Origin: a virus
Reading direction: 5' to 3' (one strand)
IMG/VR virus record: IMGVR_UViG_3300043409_001462
Span: 1-64,000 of that record
DNA length: 64,000 nt
In this document: one piece after another, positions 10,661 through 21,562 of the stretch
How the letters are laid out: each line of letters begins with the position of its first letter
How positions within the stretch are numbered: the first letter of the stretch is position 1
Notes under the pieces: model-generated
What the model saw: the letters and a program-made list of their open reading frames with translations, nothing else
Database searches by the model: none
What the model was told of the DNA's origin: nothing
Translations under genes and position numbers: made by a program

Positions 10661-10687
10661 AAGGGAGCTTCGGCTCCCTTTTTTTAT
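10661..10687. terminator. bidirectional terminator with cUUCGg tetraloop
   Basis: aagggagc-ttcg-gctccctt followed by a T-run, between convergent genes. Confidence 0.85.
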
Positions 10688-13497
10688 CCGAAAGAAGTCA
10701 TACCAAACAATTCTTTTAATCTTAATCTAGCGTCAACTGGTTCTACAATACCAACATCACCAGAGCTATATTTACCTTTGGTGCTATCTGATGTTGGTGT
10801 ACTCATAGTATTTTGATTTACAGTAATTCCTTGTTTAGCGGATCTTTGATCAGCCATATCTTTAGTTGAAGCTTGGCCAAGTTCAGCACCTTTTGAAGAA
10901 CCAGCTGGTTGTAATGCAGCTGTTTGAAGAGTTTGTGATTCTTTTGGAGACAATTGAGCGGATGTTGACCCAGTAGATGGTGTAAGAGCGCCAGGAGTGC
11001 CACCAACAGTTGAATCTGTTTTATTTTTATCTCCACCTGCTAATTGAGTACCACCGCCTCTTCTTACCATCAGCTGTGAATTTACAGGAACCATATATTT
11101 TCTTACAGCGCCGCTACTATTACCAGCAATCATTTCAACTTGACCGTTTCTATAAACACCAGTTGCTATACCAACGTGACCACCAGTTTGACCTGGTCCT
11201 TTACCTCTTGTTTGAAGAACAACATCACCTGGTTGTATTTGAGAAGGATCTACTCCAGAACCAAAATTTTGAAAACTATTAGCAACAGCAGAACCAGAAC
11301 CACTAGCTCCTGATTGTTTTAAAGAAGAATTGACGAATTGAGCACACCATGCTTCGCCTTGGTTGTTATATCCACCAGCTCTCAAGAAATCTAATGATTG
11401 ATTTCTATTTTTACCAACCATAGTTTCGGCTAATTGTACAGCAGTAGCATTTGGTGGTCCACCAGCACTAGGACCATTATTACCAAGTGCAGCAACTTGT
11501 TGATTTGGTTGTACTCTTGCAGGAGCAGATTGTCCTGGAGTAACTCCGAAAGATTGTGAACCAGAAGCAGAAGCTTGTTGTCTTGCAGCTTCTATAGTAT
11601 TTGTACCACCACCTGGTTGACGTTCAGCAGCTGGAACCTGAGAATTATTAGATCCAGTACCTTGTTTTAATGTTTCAACCTTACCTTCTTTAAATCCTTC
11701 AACTTTATGCATAGCAGCAAGTAATGCTTTACGTTGTTCAGCATTAAGTGAACCCATTTGAGTGTTTGGTGACACACCAGCTGCAGCTGCCACTGTATTA
11801 ATATAATTACCAGTGTTATTTTCATTTGGTGGGGCGTATTTCGAAATAGCCTGAGATACTGATAAATTTTTATATGAACTACTTTCAAATAAAAGTTTTT
11901 CTTGAGCTTTGTTACCTGAATCTAATGTTGGGAATATAGCAAAACGACCATCAGTTCCAATTGCACCATTTGATTTAGAAAATGCACCGTATTCTAAATT
12001 ACCAGGATTATTATTACGCCAGTTTCTAGCTCCTGTTCTTTTTTCAACTGAGCCATCCGCTAGTTCTACAGTATTAGATCCAGCTTTTGTTTCTAATATT
12101 TTTGCGATACCAGGACCACCAGAGCCACCTGGAGATGGTAATGATGATGCTGCAGCAGAAGGTTTAGCATCTCCAGCTGGTGTGGTACTAGTATTAGTGT
12201 TTGTTGCACCTTGATTTGGTTGTACGCCCTGTTGATTTTTAGAATTGAATACTAAATTTTCAGCATTGAATGTTAATGTTTTAACATTTACGATAGAATC
12301 AGTTGGATTTTTTATATCTTTGTTTTCTAGTTTTGTAGCTTGAGCTTCTTTGATATCAGCACTGGCTCCTGGACCTGGAGCAAGCATATCATATGCACCT
12401 TTACCAGCTTTACTACCAAGCCAAGATCCACCAAGACCACCACCAACAGCGCCAAGCAACCCACCGATTGCCATACCTACAGGACCACCGAATGCTCCTA
12501 ATGCTGCGCCAGCAGTTGCTCCTCCCCATGCACCAAGACCACCACCAGCTGCAGCGCCAGCGCCAGTAGATACTGCTCTACCTGCATTACCTGACTCTTG
12601 GTATTCATCATATCCAGACAAACCACCACCAAGTAATGCACCGATAACAGGTGCTCTTCTTAATACGCTACCAGCTGCACCAAGCATTCCACTTTTTGGA
12701 GCTACTTTACTCGAAGCTTTTCCTTTACCTCCACCAAGACCACTGAGTGCATCAGCTGCAGCATCTATTAAACTTGGTTTCTTTATTTGTTGAACTTCTT
12801 TTAGAATAGAACCAAGAAGCTGATTAGTCATTTCCTGACGTGCAATAGAAGTTTGCATCATCATATTTGTAGTGTTTACTTCGTCTGCAACTCTATTAAC
12901 AGCCTGTCTTACGCTGCCATCAGTTGCGTCAGAGGCACCACCACCTCCACCACCAGCTGCTGCATTTCCTTGAGGTTTTATTGCAAATGAAGGGAAAGCT
13001 GCATTAAAAGCAGTTGCGCCAGCGTTCATAGCTGCTTCTTTAAACGCTCCTTTAACTTTATCGCCCGTTGATTGAGGTGCATCAGCTGCAGGAGCTTGTT
13101 GTGTTTGTTTAGGAGGAGCTGATTGTTTTACGTTAGATGTTCTTTGACGATTAGTTTCTGCTTGTTGTCGTCTTGCATCAGATGCAGACTGCGCTTCTTG
13201 TTTTCTAGCTTCAATTTGCTCTTGTCTTTGACGTTGAGCAGCTTCTCTTTCCGCAGCCTTACGAGCTATCTCAGCTGACTTTGCAGCAGCTGCCTGACGT
13301 TTAGATTCTTCAGCTGCAGCTTTGGCTGCTTCTTGCGCTTTAGCTTTCTCTTGTTGTTTAGATTCATATTCATCGGCGAGCATCTTGGCCATTGGTCCCT
13401 TAAGGACATTACCTGAATCGTCAATTATTTGGCCATCGGGAGTTCTGTAATAAACAGAATCTCCCATAGCACCAACACGTTCGCCTTTTTTAGCCAT
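10684..13497 (-). CDS. tape-measure/baseplate-hub-like virion protein with lysozyme-like (RNNNPGNL) and CHAP/NlpC-P60 (TIGR02594-like) peptidoglycan hydrolase domains
   Basis: Helical Ala/Gln N-terminus, Gly-zipper region, RNWRNNNPGNL...YAPPNEN, AWCAQFVN...GHVG...IAGN. Confidence 0.7.
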   Translation of the reverse strand: MAKKGERVGAMGDSVYYRTPDGQIIDDSGNVLKGPMAKMLADEYESKQQEKAKAQEAAKAAAEESKRQAAAAKSAEIARKAAEREAAQRQRQEQIEARKQEAQSASDARRQQAETNRQRTSNVKQSAPPKQTQQAPAADAPQSTGDKVKGAFKEAAMNAGATAFNAAFPSFAIKPQGNAAAGGGGGGASDATDGSVRQAVNRVADEVNTTNMMMQTSIARQEMTNQLLGSILKEVQQIKKPSLIDAAADALSGLGGGKGKASSKVAPKSGMLGAAGSVLRRAPVIGALLGGGLSGYDEYQESGNAGRAVSTGAGAAAGGGLGAWGGATAGAALGAFGGPVGMAIGGLLGAVGGGLGGSWLGSKAGKGAYDMLAPGPGASADIKEAQATKLENKDIKNPTDSIVNVKTLTFNAENLVFNSKNQQGVQPNQGATNTNTSTTPAGDAKPSAAASSLPSPGGSGGPGIAKILETKAGSNTVELADGSVEKRTGARNWRNNNPGNLEYGAFSKSNGAIGTDGRFAIFPTLDSGNKAQEKLLFESSSYKNLSVSQAISKYAPPNENNTGNYINTVAAAAGVSPNTQMGSLNAEQRKALLAAMHKVEGFKEGKVETLKQGTGSNNSQVPAAERQPGGGTNTIEAARQQASASGSQSFGVTPGQSAPARVQPNQQVAALGNNGPSAGGPPNATAVQLAETMVGKNRNQSLDFLRAGGYNNQGEAWCAQFVNSSLKQSGASGSGSAVANSFQNFGSGVDPSQIQPGDVVLQTRGKGPGQTGGHVGIATGVYRNGQVEMIAGNSSGAVRKYMVPVNSQLMVRRGGGTQLAGGDKNKTDSTVGGTPGALTPSTGSTSAQLSPKESQTLQTAALQPAGSSKGAELGQASTKDMADQRSAKQGITVNQNTMSTPTSDSTKGKYSSGDVGIVEPVDARLRLKELFGMTSFG

Positions 13498-13982
13498 TAT
13501 TGCTTACTCGCAACTTTCTCTTGAGTTCTGCCATAAGCAGCAACACCAAGGATGGCACCGAATGCCATGTGAATTAAACCACCATTTGATAGTGTCAGTG
13601 ACTGCCAAGCTGCATACTGCATCGTAATACCAATACCTTTAAGCATTACTGGTAGGAACATTGCGATAGCTGGGAATACAACGAAGTCCATTAAACAGAT
13701 AAGCATGTAAAGCCAACCCATTGCTGGTCTCCACATTGACTTAACCCAACCTTCCTCTTTCTTTGGTTCAGTAGAAGGTTCAGCAACCGTGAAATTAAAT
13801 TCAGGCGGTGGAGGAGAAGGTGGAACTGCAGCTGCAGCTACTGGTGCAGGAGTTACTGGTGGAGGAGGTGGAACAATAGCTTCTACAACAGGAGCTGCAG
13901 CTGGAGGTGGTACATACTGTGGAGATACTTTAACCTCCACAGCGATATCGTCGCCTATGATTGATTTTCCAAATTTAGCCAT
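13497..13982 (-). CDS. putative holin-like membrane protein (3TM GTA-holin-like) with Pro-rich N-terminus
   Basis: WRPAMGWLYMLIC motif, hydrophobic helices, basic C-terminal GRTQEK. Confidence 0.6.
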   Translation of the reverse strand: MAKFGKSIIGDDIAVEVKVSPQYVPPPAAAPVVEAIVPPPPPVTPAPVAAAAVPPSPPPPEFNFTVAEPSTEPKKEEGWVKSMWRPAMGWLYMLICLMDFVVFPAIAMFLPVMLKGIGITMQYAAWQSLTLSNGGLIHMAFGAILGVAAYGRTQEKVASKQ

Positions 13983-14166
13983 CTTGATTTCTCTTCTGTT
14001 CTTCTAGTTCTTTGAGATGATTCATTAACATTTCAACATAAATGTCACGCTCGAATGGCAAAAGGTTTTCAATATCACTTATAGAATATTTATGATGCTG
14101 AATCAAAGAAAAATTAGTAGTATAATAATTCTCTAGAGTATTATGATTCAGCGCAATGTAAAAAAA
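13975..14166 (-). CDS. gp51: gp51-like baseplate hub assembly protein; no canonical start, candidate -1 frameshift extension of gp26
   Basis: Frame absent from the track: ...HNTLENYYTTNFSLIQHHKYSISDIENLLPFERDIYVEMLMNHLKELEEQKRNQDG*, matching the YYxxNFxLxQHHKYS...PxER gp51 pattern. Confidence 0.75.
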   Translation of the reverse strand, partial: FFYIALNHNTLENYYTTNFSLIQHHKYSISDIENLLPFERDIYVEMLMNHLKELEEQKRNQDG

Positions 14167-14855
14167 TCTGTTAACGAGGTCAGTTCAATTTGACGGTTGT
14201 TACCTAGCTTGTTCTTATACTCAATAATGTAATTAAGCTTAGGTTGGTTGAGAATAAAATCTCTTACTTTGTCGAAAGTTTTAACGTCAAGGTTATCGAT
14301 ATATTCAGAAATTTCATCCATAGTATAGTTCTTGGTGTCGTAAACATTATCAGCATCATAGAACTTTTCAATACATCTAAGCACTAGCTGATAGAAAGCT
14401 TCTTCGCCAGAGTTCATAAAATCTTTATCTTCATACAAACTAGCTTCTGGATATTTCATTACAATACCAGATGTTTCTGTTAGCTTGATTGTTTTTTCTA
14501 AATTTAATGGGAAAACAACATTGACATTATTCAAGTCAATATCGAAATCATAGTCCATGGTATCTTCGTTGTCACGATAGGTAACAGAAACGATATTGTT
14601 AACTGACTGTGCTCTGATACGTAGGAATAGATATTCAACATCAAACAAAGCTAGCTTATCAATATTTAAATCGTCAAGAGCGCAGTTGTTGACTACTTGC
14701 TTAATCGCCAAAAGGATATCGTTTTCCTGTTCGCTTGTTTTAGCAATAAGTAGAATCTTTTCTTCCTTCACAAGGAATGGACGAAATCTAACTTCTCTTT
14801 TCGATGATGGGATTTTAATTTTAAAAATAGGGTGTTCAATTTTAGGTAAAGACAT
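14148..14855 (-). CDS. gp26: baseplate hub subunit gp26
   Basis: MSLPKI...FRPFLVKEEKILL, FDVEYLFLRIRAQSV, ends LTDFF. Confidence 0.85.
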   Translation of the reverse strand: MSLPKIEHPIFKIKIPSSKREVRFRPFLVKEEKILLIAKTSEQENDILLAIKQVVNNCALDDLNIDKLALFDVEYLFLRIRAQSVNNIVSVTYRDNEDTMDYDFDIDLNNVNVVFPLNLEKTIKLTETSGIVMKYPEASLYEDKDFMNSGEEAFYQLVLRCIEKFYDADNVYDTKNYTMDEISEYIDNLDVKTFDKVRDFILNQPKLNYIIEYKNKLGNNRQIELTSLTDFFTLR

Positions 14856-14880: not shown

Positions 14881-15657
14881 TTATCCGAAAGGCGAACCTA
14901 CAGCTAGCGGTCCAGTTCCTTGCATCGCCTCTTGACTATTCAATATTTCTTTCGTAGTATCAGATGTAAGTGTAGCCTGCGCTCCAGAAGGATTGCCAGC
15001 GAAAGTAGTAAATGGGTTTGTTGGCGTTGCTTGTATTTGACTATTCATCGCGCTACTAACACCAACCATAGCCCAATCTCTATAGCTGATACTAACTGTT
15101 ATTTTCATTAAATTGCTATTGTCACTCCAGCTAAGATTAATATCATTAATCGATTCTGGAAATGCTCGGTACATAACGATATCGTTTACTTGATTGCCAG
15201 CATTATCGTATACGTACACGTGAAGATCAGTTACATAATTGTCTTTATATTCAGTTGCATATGATGCACCGACATTTGATTCATATGCAGAGCCACTGAA
15301 ATCGAATATCTTATTCATCCATGTGTAGAAATACATGTATATCTGACTGTTTCGATCTGATATAAAAGTAATCGAGTTTTCAGTAAAGCGTGCATTGAAC
15401 GGCATCTTTTGAGATGGTCCAACACCGTATCGATTAATATCGCTTTGTAGTAATGCAACTCCAGGAACCTTAACTGACTCAGCTCGAACCTGCATTAATC
15501 TTTCAGTAGTAAGAACATCATTCGTTCCTTGATTAGTTCCAAAATAACTATTTTGCATACAGCGTGGTGAATTAAATGCAACGATAAATTTGTTGGTTTG
15601 TAACACACCATTTTTAGATATATCTGATCTGAAATTATTTAAATTAAAACCAGCCAT
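14881..15657 (-). CDS. tail tube initiator gp54-like
   Basis: Tube-protein-like fold pattern (VKVPG, AFPESINDINLSW, ITVSISYRDW); synteny. Confidence 0.65.
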   Translation of the reverse strand: MAGFNLNNFRSDISKNGVLQTNKFIVAFNSPRCMQNSYFGTNQGTNDVLTTERLMQVRAESVKVPGVALLQSDINRYGVGPSQKMPFNARFTENSITFISDRNSQIYMYFYTWMNKIFDFSGSAYESNVGASYATEYKDNYVTDLHVYVYDNAGNQVNDIVMYRAFPESINDINLSWSDNSNLMKITVSISYRDWAMVGVSSAMNSQIQATPTNPFTTFAGNPSGAQATLTSDTTKEILNSQEAMQGTGPLAVGSPFG

Positions 15658-16750: not shown

Positions 16751-17713
16751 ATGTCGATACTAACGACAATCAAAGATAAAGCAGTTCAAGGCGGACAATG
16801 GGTTAAGGCTAATCCTAAAATTGCAATTGGCGCAGGCATGGCTATTGGTGGTGCAGCCATTGTGGGAAATGCATTTCTTAAACCACCAAGAGCTGTATCA
16901 GAGTCAAAATATCTTGGTGATTTGATGTTCCCAGGAGATTTGATTGATTCTTCGGCGAACCGTAATTCATATATTGCTATTCAGTTTCAAAAGTACGAAC
17001 GTCGTTCTATTTTTAATCAACCATTTTTATCTGCAACTGGTGGTATTCGTTTACCTGTACCAAATCAATTAAGTGATAATCAACAAGTAAATTTTGAACC
17101 AGCAGAAGCATCTAGTCCCGCTGTTGGTGCTGGTATCGAACAAGGTTTAAGAGGTGGTAGCGGATTTGTTGGAGGTGGTATTATTTCTGGTATAGCTGCA
17201 AATGTTGGTACAAGAATGGCACAAGCAACAGGCGCAGTAGCATCATCATTAACAGGAGCTAGCACTGCTGAAATGTTACAGCTTGGTGGTCTTGCCCAAA
17301 ACCCATTCCTTACTGTGTTGTTTAAATCACCAAATTTTAAAAAACATCAGTTTTCTTGGAAGCTTGCACCAAACAATGCACAAGAATCAAACACTATTCG
17401 CGATATAGTTAACACATTTAAATCAAACATGCTTCCTGCTATGGCACCAAATGCTGGTGGTACATTGTTAACTTATCCTAACATTGCAATTATCAGTCTT
17501 TATCCAGACGAAACTTTTCTTTATAAATTTAAACCATGCGTTATCGAATCAATGGATGTTAATTACGCTATTGGAGGACAACCTTCATTTTTCAAAGGAA
17601 CTAACGCTCCTACCATTGTAGAAATTAGCATTAATTTACTCGAAATTGAATACTGGTTAAAGGAAGATTACGAAGACAATTCATTCCGTGGTGGAGGATC
17701 TTTCTTTGGCTGA
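16751..17713 (+). CDS. gp48: baseplate tail tube cap gp48
   Basis: NPFLTVLFKSPNFKKHQFSWKLAP, ESNTIRDIVNTFK, CVIESMDVNY. Confidence 0.8.
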   Translation: MSILTTIKDKAVQGGQWVKANPKIAIGAGMAIGGAAIVGNAFLKPPRAVSESKYLGDLMFPGDLIDSSANRNSYIAIQFQKYERRSIFNQPFLSATGGIRLPVPNQLSDNQQVNFEPAEASSPAVGAGIEQGLRGGSGFVGGGIISGIAANVGTRMAQATGAVASSLTGASTAEMLQLGGLAQNPFLTVLFKSPNFKKHQFSWKLAPNNAQESNTIRDIVNTFKSNMLPAMAPNAGGTLLTYPNIAIISLYPDETFLYKFKPCVIESMDVNYAIGGQPSFFKGTNAPTIVEISINLLEIEYWLKEDYEDNSFRGGGSFFG

Positions 17714-18593: not shown

Positions 18594-19826
18594 ATGGCTG
18601 ACGGCTACAATCCTGGGGATATCATAATCGATACTTTCTCGCTTTCTTCTCAAAGAGGAAGCTTGAATCTTGCATCATCATTTATATCCGCCTCGATATT
18701 CGAAAGCATATTTACTCCTGGTATTATAGGCGATATTAGTGTTCTTGATACTGATGATCAGTTAGGCAAATTAAAAATAACTGGCGACGAAACTGTTGAA
18801 ATATCTTTTAAAGCTCCTGGTGGCGAATCAGCTAATTACAAATTCGCCTTACATGCGCTCGAGGATGTTAAGTCTGAAGGCACTCAGAAAGCTAAAACGT
18901 ATACACTTAAGGTTGTTTCCGAAGAAGCTCTTCACTCTAAAACTAATTACGTTCAGAAAAGTTTTAACTCTCCAATATCTGATATGGTTAAAGATATCCA
19001 TAAAAACTTTATGAAGAGTGAAAAGCCATTAGAGGTCGAAGATACTAAAGGTAAACAGAAAATAATTATTGGTCATCAAAATCCATATAAAGCGACTGAT
19101 ATTGTTCGTCGTCGTAGTATATCTAATGAAAATAAATCATCTGCTTATGTGTTCTTTGAAACTAGAAATGGTGGTAATCAAACATTTAAATTTACAACAA
19201 TTGAAAAGCTGTTTGGTGAAGAAGCGATTAAAGATTTCCAACAGTCGGATGCAATTAACAGTAGTATTATGAATCAAACTGATAACAATATTATTGCATA
19301 TGAAGTACCTAAACAGTTCTCGTCTACAGAGCGTATTTCAATCGGTGGTAAAACAAGAGTATCAAGTTTCGATATTAGAACACATACTTATAAAACAAAA
19401 GACGTTGATACTGACTCTACTCAATTTAAAATGGGCGGTAAAGGCGATTACGATTCTTCTGAATTTAAATCAAAATACCAACAGCCAAAAATACCAACAC
19501 AGGCAATGATACCAGTCGATACATCACAAAGACCAGTAACTAACATACCAGAGCAAACGGCAGATCAAAAAGCTTTCCTTGCAAGTCTTATGCAAAACGC
19601 TATGAAGATTAGAGTTTATGGAGACGCTAAACTAGCAGCTGGATATACAATAAATGCAGCTATACCAAACAAAGTAAGTACAACTGATAATGGTCAAACT
19701 GATCCTATGTTGTCTGGTAAATTTTTAATTTCTAGAATACATCATCAAATTGGTACTGCAGGAGAGCGTCCTAGATATACCTGCGTTCTAGAACTGTTAA
19801 AAGGTAATCTTGAGGAAGGCGTATAA
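18594..19826 (+). CDS. baseplate hub protein (gp27-like)
   Basis: SIFESIF...GDETVEISF, YVFFET, SGKFLISRIHHQI; lies before gp5. Confidence 0.7.
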   Translation: MADGYNPGDIIIDTFSLSSQRGSLNLASSFISASIFESIFTPGIIGDISVLDTDDQLGKLKITGDETVEISFKAPGGESANYKFALHALEDVKSEGTQKAKTYTLKVVSEEALHSKTNYVQKSFNSPISDMVKDIHKNFMKSEKPLEVEDTKGKQKIIIGHQNPYKATDIVRRRSISNENKSSAYVFFETRNGGNQTFKFTTIEKLFGEEAIKDFQQSDAINSSIMNQTDNNIIAYEVPKQFSSTERISIGGKTRVSSFDIRTHTYKTKDVDTDSTQFKMGGKGDYDSSEFKSKYQQPKIPTQAMIPVDTSQRPVTNIPEQTADQKAFLASLMQNAMKIRVYGDAKLAAGYTINAAIPNKVSTTDNGQTDPMLSGKFLISRIHHQIGTAGERPRYTCVLELLKGNLEEGV

Positions 19827-21562
19827 TGACAGAAAGAGATTTCGGTTCTGGTAAATGGATAGCTGAAGTTGTTAATGTAAAAGATCCAGACCAATCTGGC
19901 AGAGTACAAATACGTATTTTTGGTAGACACGACGATAAAGAAAATATCAAAGACGAAGATCTTCATTGGGCTATACCAATGCAGCCTGTTACTTCTGCTG
20001 CTTATGGTAAAATTGGTATGTCGCCATTAGGATTAGTTAGAGGTTCTAAAGTTTATGGAGAGTGGTTCGACTCAGATAATCAGCTTCCAATTATCTTTGG
20101 TAGTCTTGGTAAAGCTGGTGATCCAAAAGAGGGTGGTGATACAACTGATGGTATACCAGAAATTGATACTAAGAAAGGTAGCATACCTGGTCCTTCTCAA
20201 AACTATAGCGATCCAGTACCGATAAACCCATACAGTAATTTGTTCGGTAGCAAAATCGATATTAACAAAATCAACAACGAAAAAACAGAAGATTTTAAAA
20301 CTATCGCTACTTACACACCTGCAACTGGTATCGTTAATAATGAAAAGGTTGATGAGAAGCTCAAAGAACCAAAGAAACCAACAACAGCTTCTGCTAAAAA
20401 AGATGATACATCCGACGTTCTTGATATTGTAAAACAGGTTGACCCAGACAAGAAAAGCAGAGTATTACCAGAAGCTGCTGACGGGTTCAAACAAGTGCAA
20501 AACATAATGAGTATGACTAGTCCAGGAGGTATCACCAAACTATTAAGTGGTGGTATACAAGGAGCTATTGGTGGACTAGCTAAAAATTTAGGACTGGCTA
20601 ATGTTATGGGTCCGTTAAATCAGGTGCTTAAACAAGCTAACTTACCACCAGTTGTACAAAATGCATTACGTGGTGCATTAGCTAATGTAGCTAAATCTGC
20701 AATGAGTAGTGGTGGTAAATATAATTCTAATGCAATAAGCAATACAATACCAGGTATAAATCCAAGAAGAGGTTCGCCATCTACAAATTTGATAGTAGCT
20801 ACGGTAGCTGCTACATACATACAACAATATTTTGCTCTTGATAAAGAACCATACCCAGGTTATATTCAATGGAAAGATCCTACTTCAGGTAATTTACGTT
20901 ATACTTTAAGAGGTCAAGAACCACACTATTCTTCTGCACAAGCGCACGTTCAAGGAAACTCAGCTGCTCAAATGGTGAAAACCTTAGCTCCAATATTGAC
21001 AAAGCTGACGCAAGGAGGAACATTATCTACTTCTGATATAACTAAATTAGCAACAACTCTAACTAAATCAATGGACGGTGTTGCAGCTGATGGTCTTTCA
21101 AAAGTATTAGGTAAAGGTGTTGATTTAAAATCGATTATAGGAATGGCTAGCAAACTTATACCAAACATAGCTGGCGCTATTGGTAAATTGACTGGTGGTC
21201 ATTTACCTAAATCTGTTTTAGATGTTGGTAAAGTTGGTGAATCTATGAACGATTTTACAAAGAACCAATCATTACTTGCGATGAAAAAGAAAGAGATGAA
21301 AAAAGCTATAGAACCAGAACCACCTGCAGAGCAAGACGCCCAAATACAGGCGTACAATGATTATGTTGCTAAAGGTGATATGTCTATATCAGGCGAAGGT
21401 GGAGCTTTTGGTGCTGCGGCTGATGTTGCTGCAGATAACGCAGCAGCTGCTGGAGCTGGTGCAGCTGCTCCTATGATAACAAATGATACACAAAATATTA
21501 TTGACAATCAACAATCTATTCAAGGTGTTGGTCCGTTAGTTACTGGCTCAGCATTCGGTTAA
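19826..21562 (+). CDS. gp5: baseplate central spike gp5, N-terminal OB-fold part
   Basis: DPDQSGRVQIRIFGRH...LHWAIP...GSKVYGEWFD...QLPIIFGSL; no recognisable T4 lysozyme domain. Confidence 0.75.
   Translation: MTERDFGSGKWIAEVVNVKDPDQSGRVQIRIFGRHDDKENIKDEDLHWAIPMQPVTSAAYGKIGMSPLGLVRGSKVYGEWFDSDNQLPIIFGSLGKAGDPKEGGDTTDGIPEIDTKKGSIPGPSQNYSDPVPINPYSNLFGSKIDINKINNEKTEDFKTIATYTPATGIVNNEKVDEKLKEPKKPTTASAKKDDTSDVLDIVKQVDPDKKSRVLPEAADGFKQVQNIMSMTSPGGITKLLSGGIQGAIGGLAKNLGLANVMGPLNQVLKQANLPPVVQNALRGALANVAKSAMSSGGKYNSNAISNTIPGINPRRGSPSTNLIVATVAATYIQQYFALDKEPYPGYIQWKDPTSGNLRYTLRGQEPHYSSAQAHVQGNSAAQMVKTLAPILTKLTQGGTLSTSDITKLATTLTKSMDGVAADGLSKVLGKGVDLKSIIGMASKLIPNIAGAIGKLTGGHLPKSVLDVGKVGESMNDFTKNQSLLAMKKKEMKKAIEPEPPAEQDAQIQAYNDYVAKGDMSISGEGGAFGAAADVAADNAAAAGAGAAAPMITNDTQNIIDNQQSIQGVGPLVTGSAFG

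Follow-up and report, generated by a model that had tools for sequence, protein, structure and literature searches.

A 64,000-nucleotide stretch of DNA from an uncultured marine T4-like phage (positions 1 to 64,000 of the IMG/VR record IMGVR_UViG_3300043409_001462, hereafter the window) encodes on its minus strand a relative of the T4 protein gp26, and the 3' end of this gene is overlapped by a second reading frame, shifted by -1, that encodes a gp51-like peptide. The source genome is 173,384 bp long with a CheckV completeness of 100%. Its closest named relatives by DNA are marine cyanomyoviruses and the Methylophilales phage Melnitz, and the similarity to these begins exactly at a run of seven T residues near the end of the gp26-like gene and spans the -1 open reading frame (ORF). 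Judging from the sequence and its conservation, we consider it probable, at roughly 80%, that the single gp26-family gene of this phage carries a programmed -1 frameshift site near its end and thereby yields two proteins, i.e. a 235-residue gp26 and a 293-residue gp26-gp51 fusion.

The gp26-like gene (14148..14855, minus strand) starts with an ATG at 14855-14853, preceded 6 nt upstream by GGAGA, and encodes 235 residues followed by a TGA stop. In the terms of the lambda tail chaperones gpG and gpGT, it would give the short, G-like product. Residues 10-232 match the Pfam family PF12322 (T4_baseplate) with an expectation value (E) of 7.3e-48 and 163.6 bits at a cut-off of 24.5, covering profile positions 3-218 of 219. 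The protein also matches phrog_150 ('baseplate hub', E 1.4e-55) on profile positions 5-234 of 282. The part of this profile that follows directly, positions 235-281, is taken up by the -1 peptide, which in addition has a match in phrog_634 ('baseplate hub assembly catalyst', E 9.9e-27).

In the minus-strand reading, the 3' end of the gp26-like gene is ...TTA ACA GAT TTT TTT ACA TTG CGC TGA, with the stop codon at 14150-14148. The T7 run at 14166-14160 forms the heptamer T_TTT_TTT (U_UUU_UUU in the RNA; 14160..14166, minus strand), which lies in phase with the gp26 frame (GA-T TTT TTT), that is, in the canonical X_XXY_YYZ phase for a -1 slip. It ends 9 nt before the gp26 stop and is invariant in the window clade. 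Starting at the last T of the run (14160), the sequence in the -1 frame is YIALNHNTLENYYTTNFSLIQHHKYSISDIENLLPFERDIYVEMLMNHLKELEEQKRNQDG, with 61 open codons before a TAA at 13977-13975. This extension (13975..14160, minus strand) would form the T-like part of the long product. Upstream, the -1 frame is closed by a TGA at 14187-14185, six codons before the heptamer. The whole recoded unit would thus span 13975..14855 on the minus strand, and the conceptual fusion of 293 residues consists of 232 residues from frame 0 (through ...DFF) and 61 from frame -1. The predicted junction peptide reads ...LTDFFYIALNHNTLENYY... in the window type and ...GLQSFFRISMFYNNLENYY... in the type of phage S-PM2. 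The heptamer, the 61-codon -1 frame and its closing TGA had been described in the initial annotation, and all were borne out by re-reading the minus strand. The same holds for its statement that no usable start precedes the gp51-like motifs: no ATG, GTG or TTG is found there. The first such codon in the -1 frame is a TTG 44 nt past the gp26 stop, within the conserved NFSLIQHH motif, and the first ATG lies 119 nt past the stop.

Taken alone, one T7 run does not exceed chance. Both strands of the window together hold 17 T7/A7 runs, compared with 39.9 ± 8.7 in dinucleotide-preserving shuffles, and all 100 of 100 shuffles contained at least 17. What exceeds chance is the conservation of the site. 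As an aside, the same counts show that T7/A7 runs are depleted across the whole window, i.e. that they are if anything avoided.

We sampled 80 IMG/VR loci encoding gp26 relatives, with identities from 96% down to 50%. Every one of them (80 of 80) has GAT TTT TTT, with a distance of 9 nt from the end of the heptamer to the stop of frame 0, and a gp51-like peptide that follows in the -1 frame. Homology to the -1 peptide of the window, as judged by tblastn, starts at residues 1-3 of the -1 reading across these loci, and the first ATG of the -1 frame mostly lies 119 nt past the stop. Within the window clade, we compared 53 unique gp26 genes codon by codon. In their alignment, forty columns show an invariant residue for which synonymous codons exist, and only three of these are also invariant at the codon level, namely the GAT TTT TTT of the slippery site. 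Elsewhere in the same genes, TTC makes up 35% of the Phe codons and GAC 28% of the Asp codons. The amino acids alone do not account for the invariance of these three codons.

The arrangement extends well beyond the window clade. In eleven named phages the pattern N-NT TTT TTY is retained and the peptide lies in the -1 frame. The site reads NNT TTT TTC in S-PM2, P-TIM68, S-MbCM6, ACG-2014j, S-H34, BUCT-ZZ01 and S-B05, AGT TTT TTT TAA in Melnitz, GAT TTT TTC GTA TAA in the KVP40-like phage phi-pp2, AAT TTT TTT ACT TTG TGA in Sinorhizobium phage phiN3, and GAT TTT TTC TAA in the pf16-like phage Milchi. Altogether, the 80 metagenomic relatives and the 11 named phages, which represent at least six T4-like lineages, all have the heptamer form T_TTT_TTY; the named phages include Kyanoviridae, Melnitz, phi-pp2, phiN3 and Milchi. 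The residue preceding the two phenylalanines is variable (D, S, N, A or T) while the third base of its codon is always T, as the heptamer requires. In the 80 metagenome contigs and the 11 isolate genomes, the 0-frame stop follows 0-3 codons after the heptamer. A conserved T-run in the codons of the FF pair, with gp51 always in the -1 frame across T4-like lineages, had been named beforehand as the pattern to look for, and it was found at all 80 loci and in all 11 named phages.

A stem-loop is predicted downstream of the heptamer. Its 5' arm (GCUGAAUCA; 14144..14152, minus strand), which includes the gp26 stop codon, follows a 7-nt spacer (ACAUUGC; 14153..14159, minus strand), and its 3' arm (UGAUUCAGC; 14097..14105, minus strand) was located both in the minimum free energy (MFE) fold and in the alignment. 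The resulting 9-bp stem has an MFE of -17.6 kcal/mol and a z-score of -2.2 relative to shuffled sequences. Across 42 aligned clade sequences, 40 of them distinct, pairing in the helix amounts to 92.8%, and three of the nine pairs are changed on both sides (one from CG to UA, one among AU, GU and GC, one among CG, UA and UG). The covariation score exceeded that of 500 out of 500 column shuffles, and sliding the 3' arm by 1-3 columns lowered the pairing to 35-46%. Unrelated stems of 8-9 bp occur at similar spacing in Milchi and phiN3. An Rfam search of 13900-14300 gave no relevant match to a frameshift-RNA family at E <= 1, and an upstream Shine-Dalgarno-like stimulator is absent from the window.

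Two further observations concern these elements. A subclade with a TAA stop in gp26 (L020, L041 and L044) has lost the stem register of the window and instead has an 11-bp stem shifted by 5 columns (UUGCGCUAAAC / GUUUAGCGCAA), which starts 4 nt after the heptamer. As judged from the sequences, the structure is kept there by re-pairing and not by column-wise compensation. In some cyanophages a GGAGG lies about 11 nt upstream of the heptamer. We considered it as a possible stimulator and dropped it, as it encodes the conserved LEGL motif.

The same fusion could in principle be reached by transcriptional slippage. If the polymerase added a single U on the T7 run, standard translation would give an identical ...DFF-YIAL... 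protein. The site is indeed homopolymeric, and the under-representation of T7/A7 runs in the window (17 against 39.9) is what one would expect if such runs were error-prone. However, productive transcriptional slippage usually needs runs of about 8-9 nucleotides or longer, and the run is only T7 here and T6 (TTTTTTC) in the cyanophages and in the KVP40-like and pf16-like phages. Moreover, polymerase slippage requires neither the fixed X_XXY_YYZ phase nor a covarying stem at 7-nt spacing, a distance typical of stimulators of ribosomal frameshifting. We thus regard this explanation as unlikely.

Alternatively, gp51 might be a gene of its own, giving a free protein of about 5-7 kDa by initiation or termination-reinitiation, either at the internal TTG or at a non-canonical codon (ATT, or the CTG that overlaps the stop of gp26), in which case the T-run would reflect nothing but the codons of a conserved Asp-Phe-Phe. 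Separate short 'gp51' genes are annotated in many relatives, the CTGA overlap resembles coupled stop-start layouts, and an ATG stands four codons into the -1 frame of S-PM2 and P-TIM68, where independent initiation is conceivable. An independent start, which the initial annotation had listed among the observations that would refute the fusion, was looked for in the relatives, and no conserved ATG, GTG or TTG start for the -1 peptide was found in the related loci. The codon overlapping the gp26 stop is CTG, CTA, TTG or TTA among relatives; as it varies among Leu synonyms, we read it as a Leu codon and rejected it as a start. The first ATG, mostly 119 nt past the stop, falls within the conserved region, while homology in the -1 frame begins right after the heptamer, ahead of all candidate starts. 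When the 61-residue peptide was compared by phmmer with 1.84 billion cluster representatives, 863 matches were obtained. The best 150 of these consist nearly entirely of short called ORFs, which begin at positions equivalent to anywhere from query residue 1 to 20, a scatter that gene callers produce when no true start exists. The codon invariance of GAT TTT TTT also argues against a separate gene, and in T4-type phages the peptide occurs only as a C-terminal extension of a gp26-like domain. Taken together, we find an independent gene quite improbable.

That the -1 ORF is a decaying relic, or that a homopolymer sequencing error interrupts a continuous gp51-type ORF, is hardly credible, given that the same frame relation recurs in 80 independent contigs and 11 isolates from differing laboratories and sequencing methods and that the peptide is under purifying selection with matches in 566 phage records, even though homopolymers are classic sites of sequencing indels and one metagenomic protein, P0175, reads through in frame.

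P0175 (192 residues) runs in frame from the C-terminal region of gp26 (...LEGLACFF) via QSRYGSH into the gp51 motif (TNLESYYKINF...). This fragment may be a natural in-frame fusion from a phage that is not a T-even, or else it reflects an indel in the run. It came from a search for natural in-frame fusions among the best 150 of the 863 phmmer matches, which otherwise yielded almost exclusively short called ORFs. Two further candidates, P0168 and P0231, were rejected, as they look like frame errors or chimeras.

A programmed frameshift would also bear on how these genes are annotated. The 566 phage records matched by the -1 peptide in tblastn (E <= 1e-3) include the C-terminus of the 249-residue gp51 of Aeromonas phage Aes012. 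None of the 11 inspected records of the frameshift type contains a joined coding sequence (CDS); some truncate the -1 ORF and some omit it. The GenBank records of S-MbCM6 and ACG-2014j have no gp51 CDS, and the annotated gp51 start of Melnitz removes the conserved N-terminal part. By contrast, gp13-14 of phage HK97 is annotated as a joined CDS.

How the two reading frames relate to T4 becomes apparent from profile matches. Residues 1-201 of T4 gp51 (249 residues) match PF12322 with an E of 3.9e-52, compared with 8.8e-64 for T4 gp26 (208 residues), and phrog_150 holds both proteins, T4 gp26 on positions 14-235 and T4 gp51 on positions 13-280. As judged from these matches, T4 gp51 is a gp26 paralogue with a C-terminal extension of about 48 residues, and the -1 peptide is homologous to this extension of T4-type gp51. 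We aligned the conceptual -1 fusions of nine phages with gp26 and gp51 of T4 and Aes012 using MAFFT. The fusions are collinear with T4 and Aes012 gp51 across the junction, where T4 gp51 reaches ...MIPAERGF and the window ...SLTDFF followed by YIALNHNTLENYYTTNFSLIQHHK...LLPFERDIY. T4 gp26 ends in ...GLKEFFELL, three residues past its own FF, and gene 26 of T4 ends GAG TTC TTT GAG TTA CTA TAA, without a slippery site. In T4 and Aes012, genes 26 and 51 are separate and divergently transcribed. The window genome contains exactly one PF12322 locus and one locus for the -1 peptide, with no separate gene 51. Thus, an architecture of the T4 gp51 type can be obtained there only by a shift of frame.

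To see whether T4 genes 26 and 51 arose by a late duplication, we built a maximum-likelihood tree from the gp26-like domains. Three clans, formed by T-even gp26, by T-even gp51 and by all frameshifting lineages, meet there at a near-trifurcation with long branches. The three-clan topology indicates that the duplication predates the split of T4 and Aes012, and it does not settle the polarity. As the frameshift arrangement is more widespread and also occurs within the Straboviridae (KVP40-like phages), we infer that it is the ancestral one. The initial annotation had also suggested that the pair is usually recorded in T4-like phages as two separate hub genes. This applies to the short 'gp51' ORFs of marine, KVP40-like, phiM12-like and pf16-like phages, which appear to be mis-annotated; it does not apply to the true T-even phages, where 26 and 51 are two real genes. 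In T4, gp26 and gp51 are tabled as hub assembly chaperones (Table 2 in PMC3004832, Leiman et al. 2010). Sullivan et al. 2010 described cyanophage and marine vibriophage gp51 proteins of about 20% of the normal length that lack the first ~200 residues, and left this unexplained (PMC3037559).

A side observation concerns the extension itself. In the precomputed Pfam column of the protein database, PF28602 stands beside PF12322 on all full-length T4-type gp51 proteins (P0276-P0367). It is presumably a new family for the gp51 C-terminal extension. The 61-residue peptide had no match in the Pfam copy that we used, which does not contain PF28602.

To gain insights into the architecture of gp26, we modeled the protein with AlphaFold2 from a 64-sequence alignment, yielding a predicted local distance difference test score (pLDDT) of 90.6 and a predicted template modeling score (pTM) of 0.86. 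A VIA-align comparison with 48,161 PDB representatives ranked first 3FGX_B (Z 8.0), 2OB9_B, annotated as 'HK97 tail assembly chaperone' (Z 7.2), and 3KLU_A, YqbN (Z 7.1). All three match residues 1-95 of gp26, with a root mean square deviation of 4.0 Å over 84-85 residues and sequence identities of 8-12%. The next rank was 5IR0 with a Z of 5.0, and unrelated chains reached at most 4.4. According to PMC9603447, which cites Pell et al. 2013, the proteins of 3FGX (Rbstp2171), 2OB9 and 3KLU are the tail assembly chaperones (TACs) with solved structures. The argument rests on which proteins rank first and on the gap in score below them; on this basis, the N-terminal domain of gp26 is predicted to have the tail-assembly-chaperone fold.

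Residues 85-229 of the gp26 model (14169-14603, minus strand) gave six weak matches (Z 3.1-3.8) to the peptide-binding C-terminal domains of Hsp40/DnaJ chaperones (2Q2G, 7ZHS, 3AGZ, 3I38, 3LZ8 and 1NLT). These are oddly consistent and too weak for a claim. In the same region T4 gp26 and gp51 have two Cys pairs, which the marine proteins do not possess.

The neighboring genes place the unit within a tail gene cluster. Upstream of gp26 lies a gp54-like gene of the tail-tube family (258 residues; 14881..15657, minus strand; phrog_45 'tail tube', E 7.7e-32, and PF23849 Phage_TTP_2). Downstream, a gene at 13497..13982 (minus strand) encodes a 161-residue protein with a proline-rich N-terminus and three transmembrane segments, hereafter the three-transmembrane (3TM) protein, which matches PF11351 (GTA_holin_3TM, E 1.3e-5) and phrog_3427 ('holin'). 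It is followed by a 937-residue tape-measure-like protein (10684..13497, minus strand; phrog_2276 and phrog_794 'tail length tape measure protein'), which contains a CHAP domain (E 8.8e-7) and another stretch matching lysin/endolysin PHROG families and which is a probable analogue of gp29. The order on the minus strand is thus DNA end protector, tail-tube-like protein, gp26, -1 peptide, 3TM 'holin-like' protein and tape-measure-like protein, and the profile matches agree with the gene order proposed earlier (tube-like, gp26, gp51, holin-like, tape-measure-like). Further upstream of the tube-family gene are gp2- and gp4-like genes, downstream of the tape-measure-like gene is gp32, and the opposite, divergent strand carries gp48-, gp53- and gp5-like genes.

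The ATG of the 3TM protein overlaps the last codons of the -1 ORF (GATGGCTAA) rather than the stop codon of gp26. Coupling of its translation to frameshifted ribosomes is therefore conceivable. A small ORF is present at the place of the 3TM gene in Melnitz and phiN3 and absent from S-PM2 and P-TIM68. Several tail proteins of the window also have a common C-terminal end. Four of the 49 ATG-initiated ORFs of at least 100 residues in the window end in ...FG, compared with 0.17 expected, namely the tape-measure-like protein (10684-13497, minus strand), the gp54-like tube protein (14881-15657, minus strand), a gp48-like protein (16751-17713, plus strand) and a gp5-like protein (19826-21562, plus strand). 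Two of these four have a longer common C-terminal motif, QG(T/V)GPL..GS.FG. Their counterparts in T4, phiN3, phi-pp2 and Milchi are not FG-terminal, and several of those have G-x-F-like tails. The FG end could be a common docking or processing tag of proteins lining the tube or hub.

Besides the early ATG of S-PM2 and P-TIM68, several points weigh against a frameshifted chaperone pair at this locus. The fold matches have modest Z values of 7-8, in the range that the tool calls common for best matches, and comprise residues 1-95 only. They were not reproduced with a T4 gp51-like model (P0276, 95% identical to T4 gp51, pLDDT 92.3): here the gp51 extension forms four helices (residues 196-249), and the VIA-align list was filled by generic helix-hairpin matches to residues 205-250, with chaperones not listed. 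A Foldseek search of the gp26 model against the PDB returned nothing at E <= 0.001, and phmmer found no relative of gp26 among the PDB sequences. A Pfam scan of 64 clade members at E <= 5 gave PF12322 alone and no TAC family, and an hhalign comparison between the gp26 clade and the family of the HK97 chaperone (PF06222) gave a probability of 0.2. It is known that TAC families do not detect one another by sequence; a missing sequence match therefore weighs little against a similar function. The arms of the stem double as coding sequence for conserved peptide (ALNH and SLIQH), and the sequences in the alignment are related to one another. Coding constraint or shared descent may therefore contribute part of the pairing signal, and we take the covariation as supportive and not as proof. 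Finally, one small gene, that of the 3TM protein, separates the putative chaperone gene from the tape-measure-like gene.

With these points considered, we propose the following course of events for the programmed frameshift. Most ribosomes would read GAU UUU UUU ACA UUG CGC UGA and release the 235-residue gp26. A minority would pause on U_UUU_UUU, held by the 9-bp stem-loop standing 7 nt downstream at the mRNA entrance, and the tRNA-Phe molecules in the P- and A-sites would re-pair one base back, where UUU and UUU are still cognate in the -1 frame. Translation would then resume with UAC (Tyr) and continue for 61 codons to give the 293-residue fusion. The product pair would correspond to T4 gp26 (the short form) and T4 gp51 (a gp26-like domain with the same extension). 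By analogy with lambda G/GT (PMC5009743, Atkins et al. 2016) and from the predicted fold, the short form, in many copies, may coat or hold the tape-measure protein encoded downstream. The rare long form would bind the tape measure through the common domain while its extension recruits a partner in the tube or hub, and assembly of the hub and tube would thereby be initiated on the tape measure. Both forms are expected to be missing from the finished virion. The proposed absence from the virion and the chaperone role fit T4, in which gp51 is required for assembly yet absent from the particle (PMC3004832). The initial annotation had called gp26 and gp26-51 the G/GT chaperone pair of this phage. 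The sequence signal, its conservation, the homology and collinearity with T4 gp51 and the fold match speak for such a pair, whereas a G/GT-like function would follow by analogy; the occurrence and efficiency of slippage, the ratio of the two products, their binding partners and their role as chaperones are inferred.

G-T frameshifting has been described as conserved in long-tailed phages 'except T4' (PMC5009743). Judging from the genomes compared here, the tail-chaperone -1 frameshift is very probably present in T4-like phages as well, a lineage thought to be exempt, with T4 probably having replaced the recoding by a duplicated gene. We found no report of a gp26/gp51 frameshift in T4-like phages in the searchable literature and databases, a coverage outside which most subscription journals lie. 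We further lean towards a broader view, in which the -1 frameshift in gp26 is the general and probably ancestral state of the T4 superfamily, T4 gp26 and gp51 are G/GT equivalents derived from duplicated genes, the tail-chaperone pair is universal in long-tailed phages, and the 'catalytic' gp51, long without explanation, acts as a rare GT-like adaptor that couples the tape measure gp29 to the initiation of the hub and tube. If this is true, T4 would be exceptional only in how the pair is encoded. The probable frameshift itself would close the gap named for T4 in the general rule of tail-chaperone frameshifting. It would also explain the short gp51 proteins noted by Sullivan et al. 2010 and correct the annotation of hundreds of genomes, as illustrated by the phage records that carry the peptide. 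Moreover, it would provide a natural experiment, in which the same pair of proteins comes from recoding in one set of lineages and from duplicated genes in another.

Several known systems invite comparison. Lambda gpG/gpGT, an example of the -1 frameshift conserved in the chaperone genes of long-tailed phages (Xu, Hendrix and Duda 2004; reviewed in PMC5009743), and the unit described here, as predicted, have in common an X_XXY_YYZ -1 slip close to the 3' terminus of a chaperone gene situated between tube-family and tape-measure genes, a short product and a C-terminally extended one (abundant and rare in lambda, and predicted to be so here), and, as judged from the model, an N-terminal chaperone fold. 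The phage differs from lambda in its heptamer, which is U_UUU_UUU or U_UUU_UUC, and in a protein about twice as long that belongs to PF12322, has extra domains after the chaperone-like 90 residues and is separated from the tape measure by the 3TM gene. Furthermore, the genetics of the T4 homologues concern assembly of the baseplate hub, and no TAC sequence similarity is detectable. HK97 gp13/gp13-14 (2OB9) shows the same layout, with a small gene (gp15 in HK97) between the frameshifted chaperone and the tape measure, whereas its chaperone is a single domain of 128 residues. The chaperones of P2 and Mu belong to families unrelated to gp26 at the sequence level. These phages, with gpE/E+E' in P2, apply the G/GT logic in contractile tails, the frameshifted gene lying just upstream of the tape measure (see also PMC5009743). 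The closest counterparts are T4 gp26 and gp51, which are true homologues: the short form ends 0-3 residues past the conserved FF, and the long form continues collinearly. T4 and near relatives such as Aes012 use two genes without a slippery site for this purpose, whereas the window and most other T4-like lineages would do so with one gene and a -1 frameshift.

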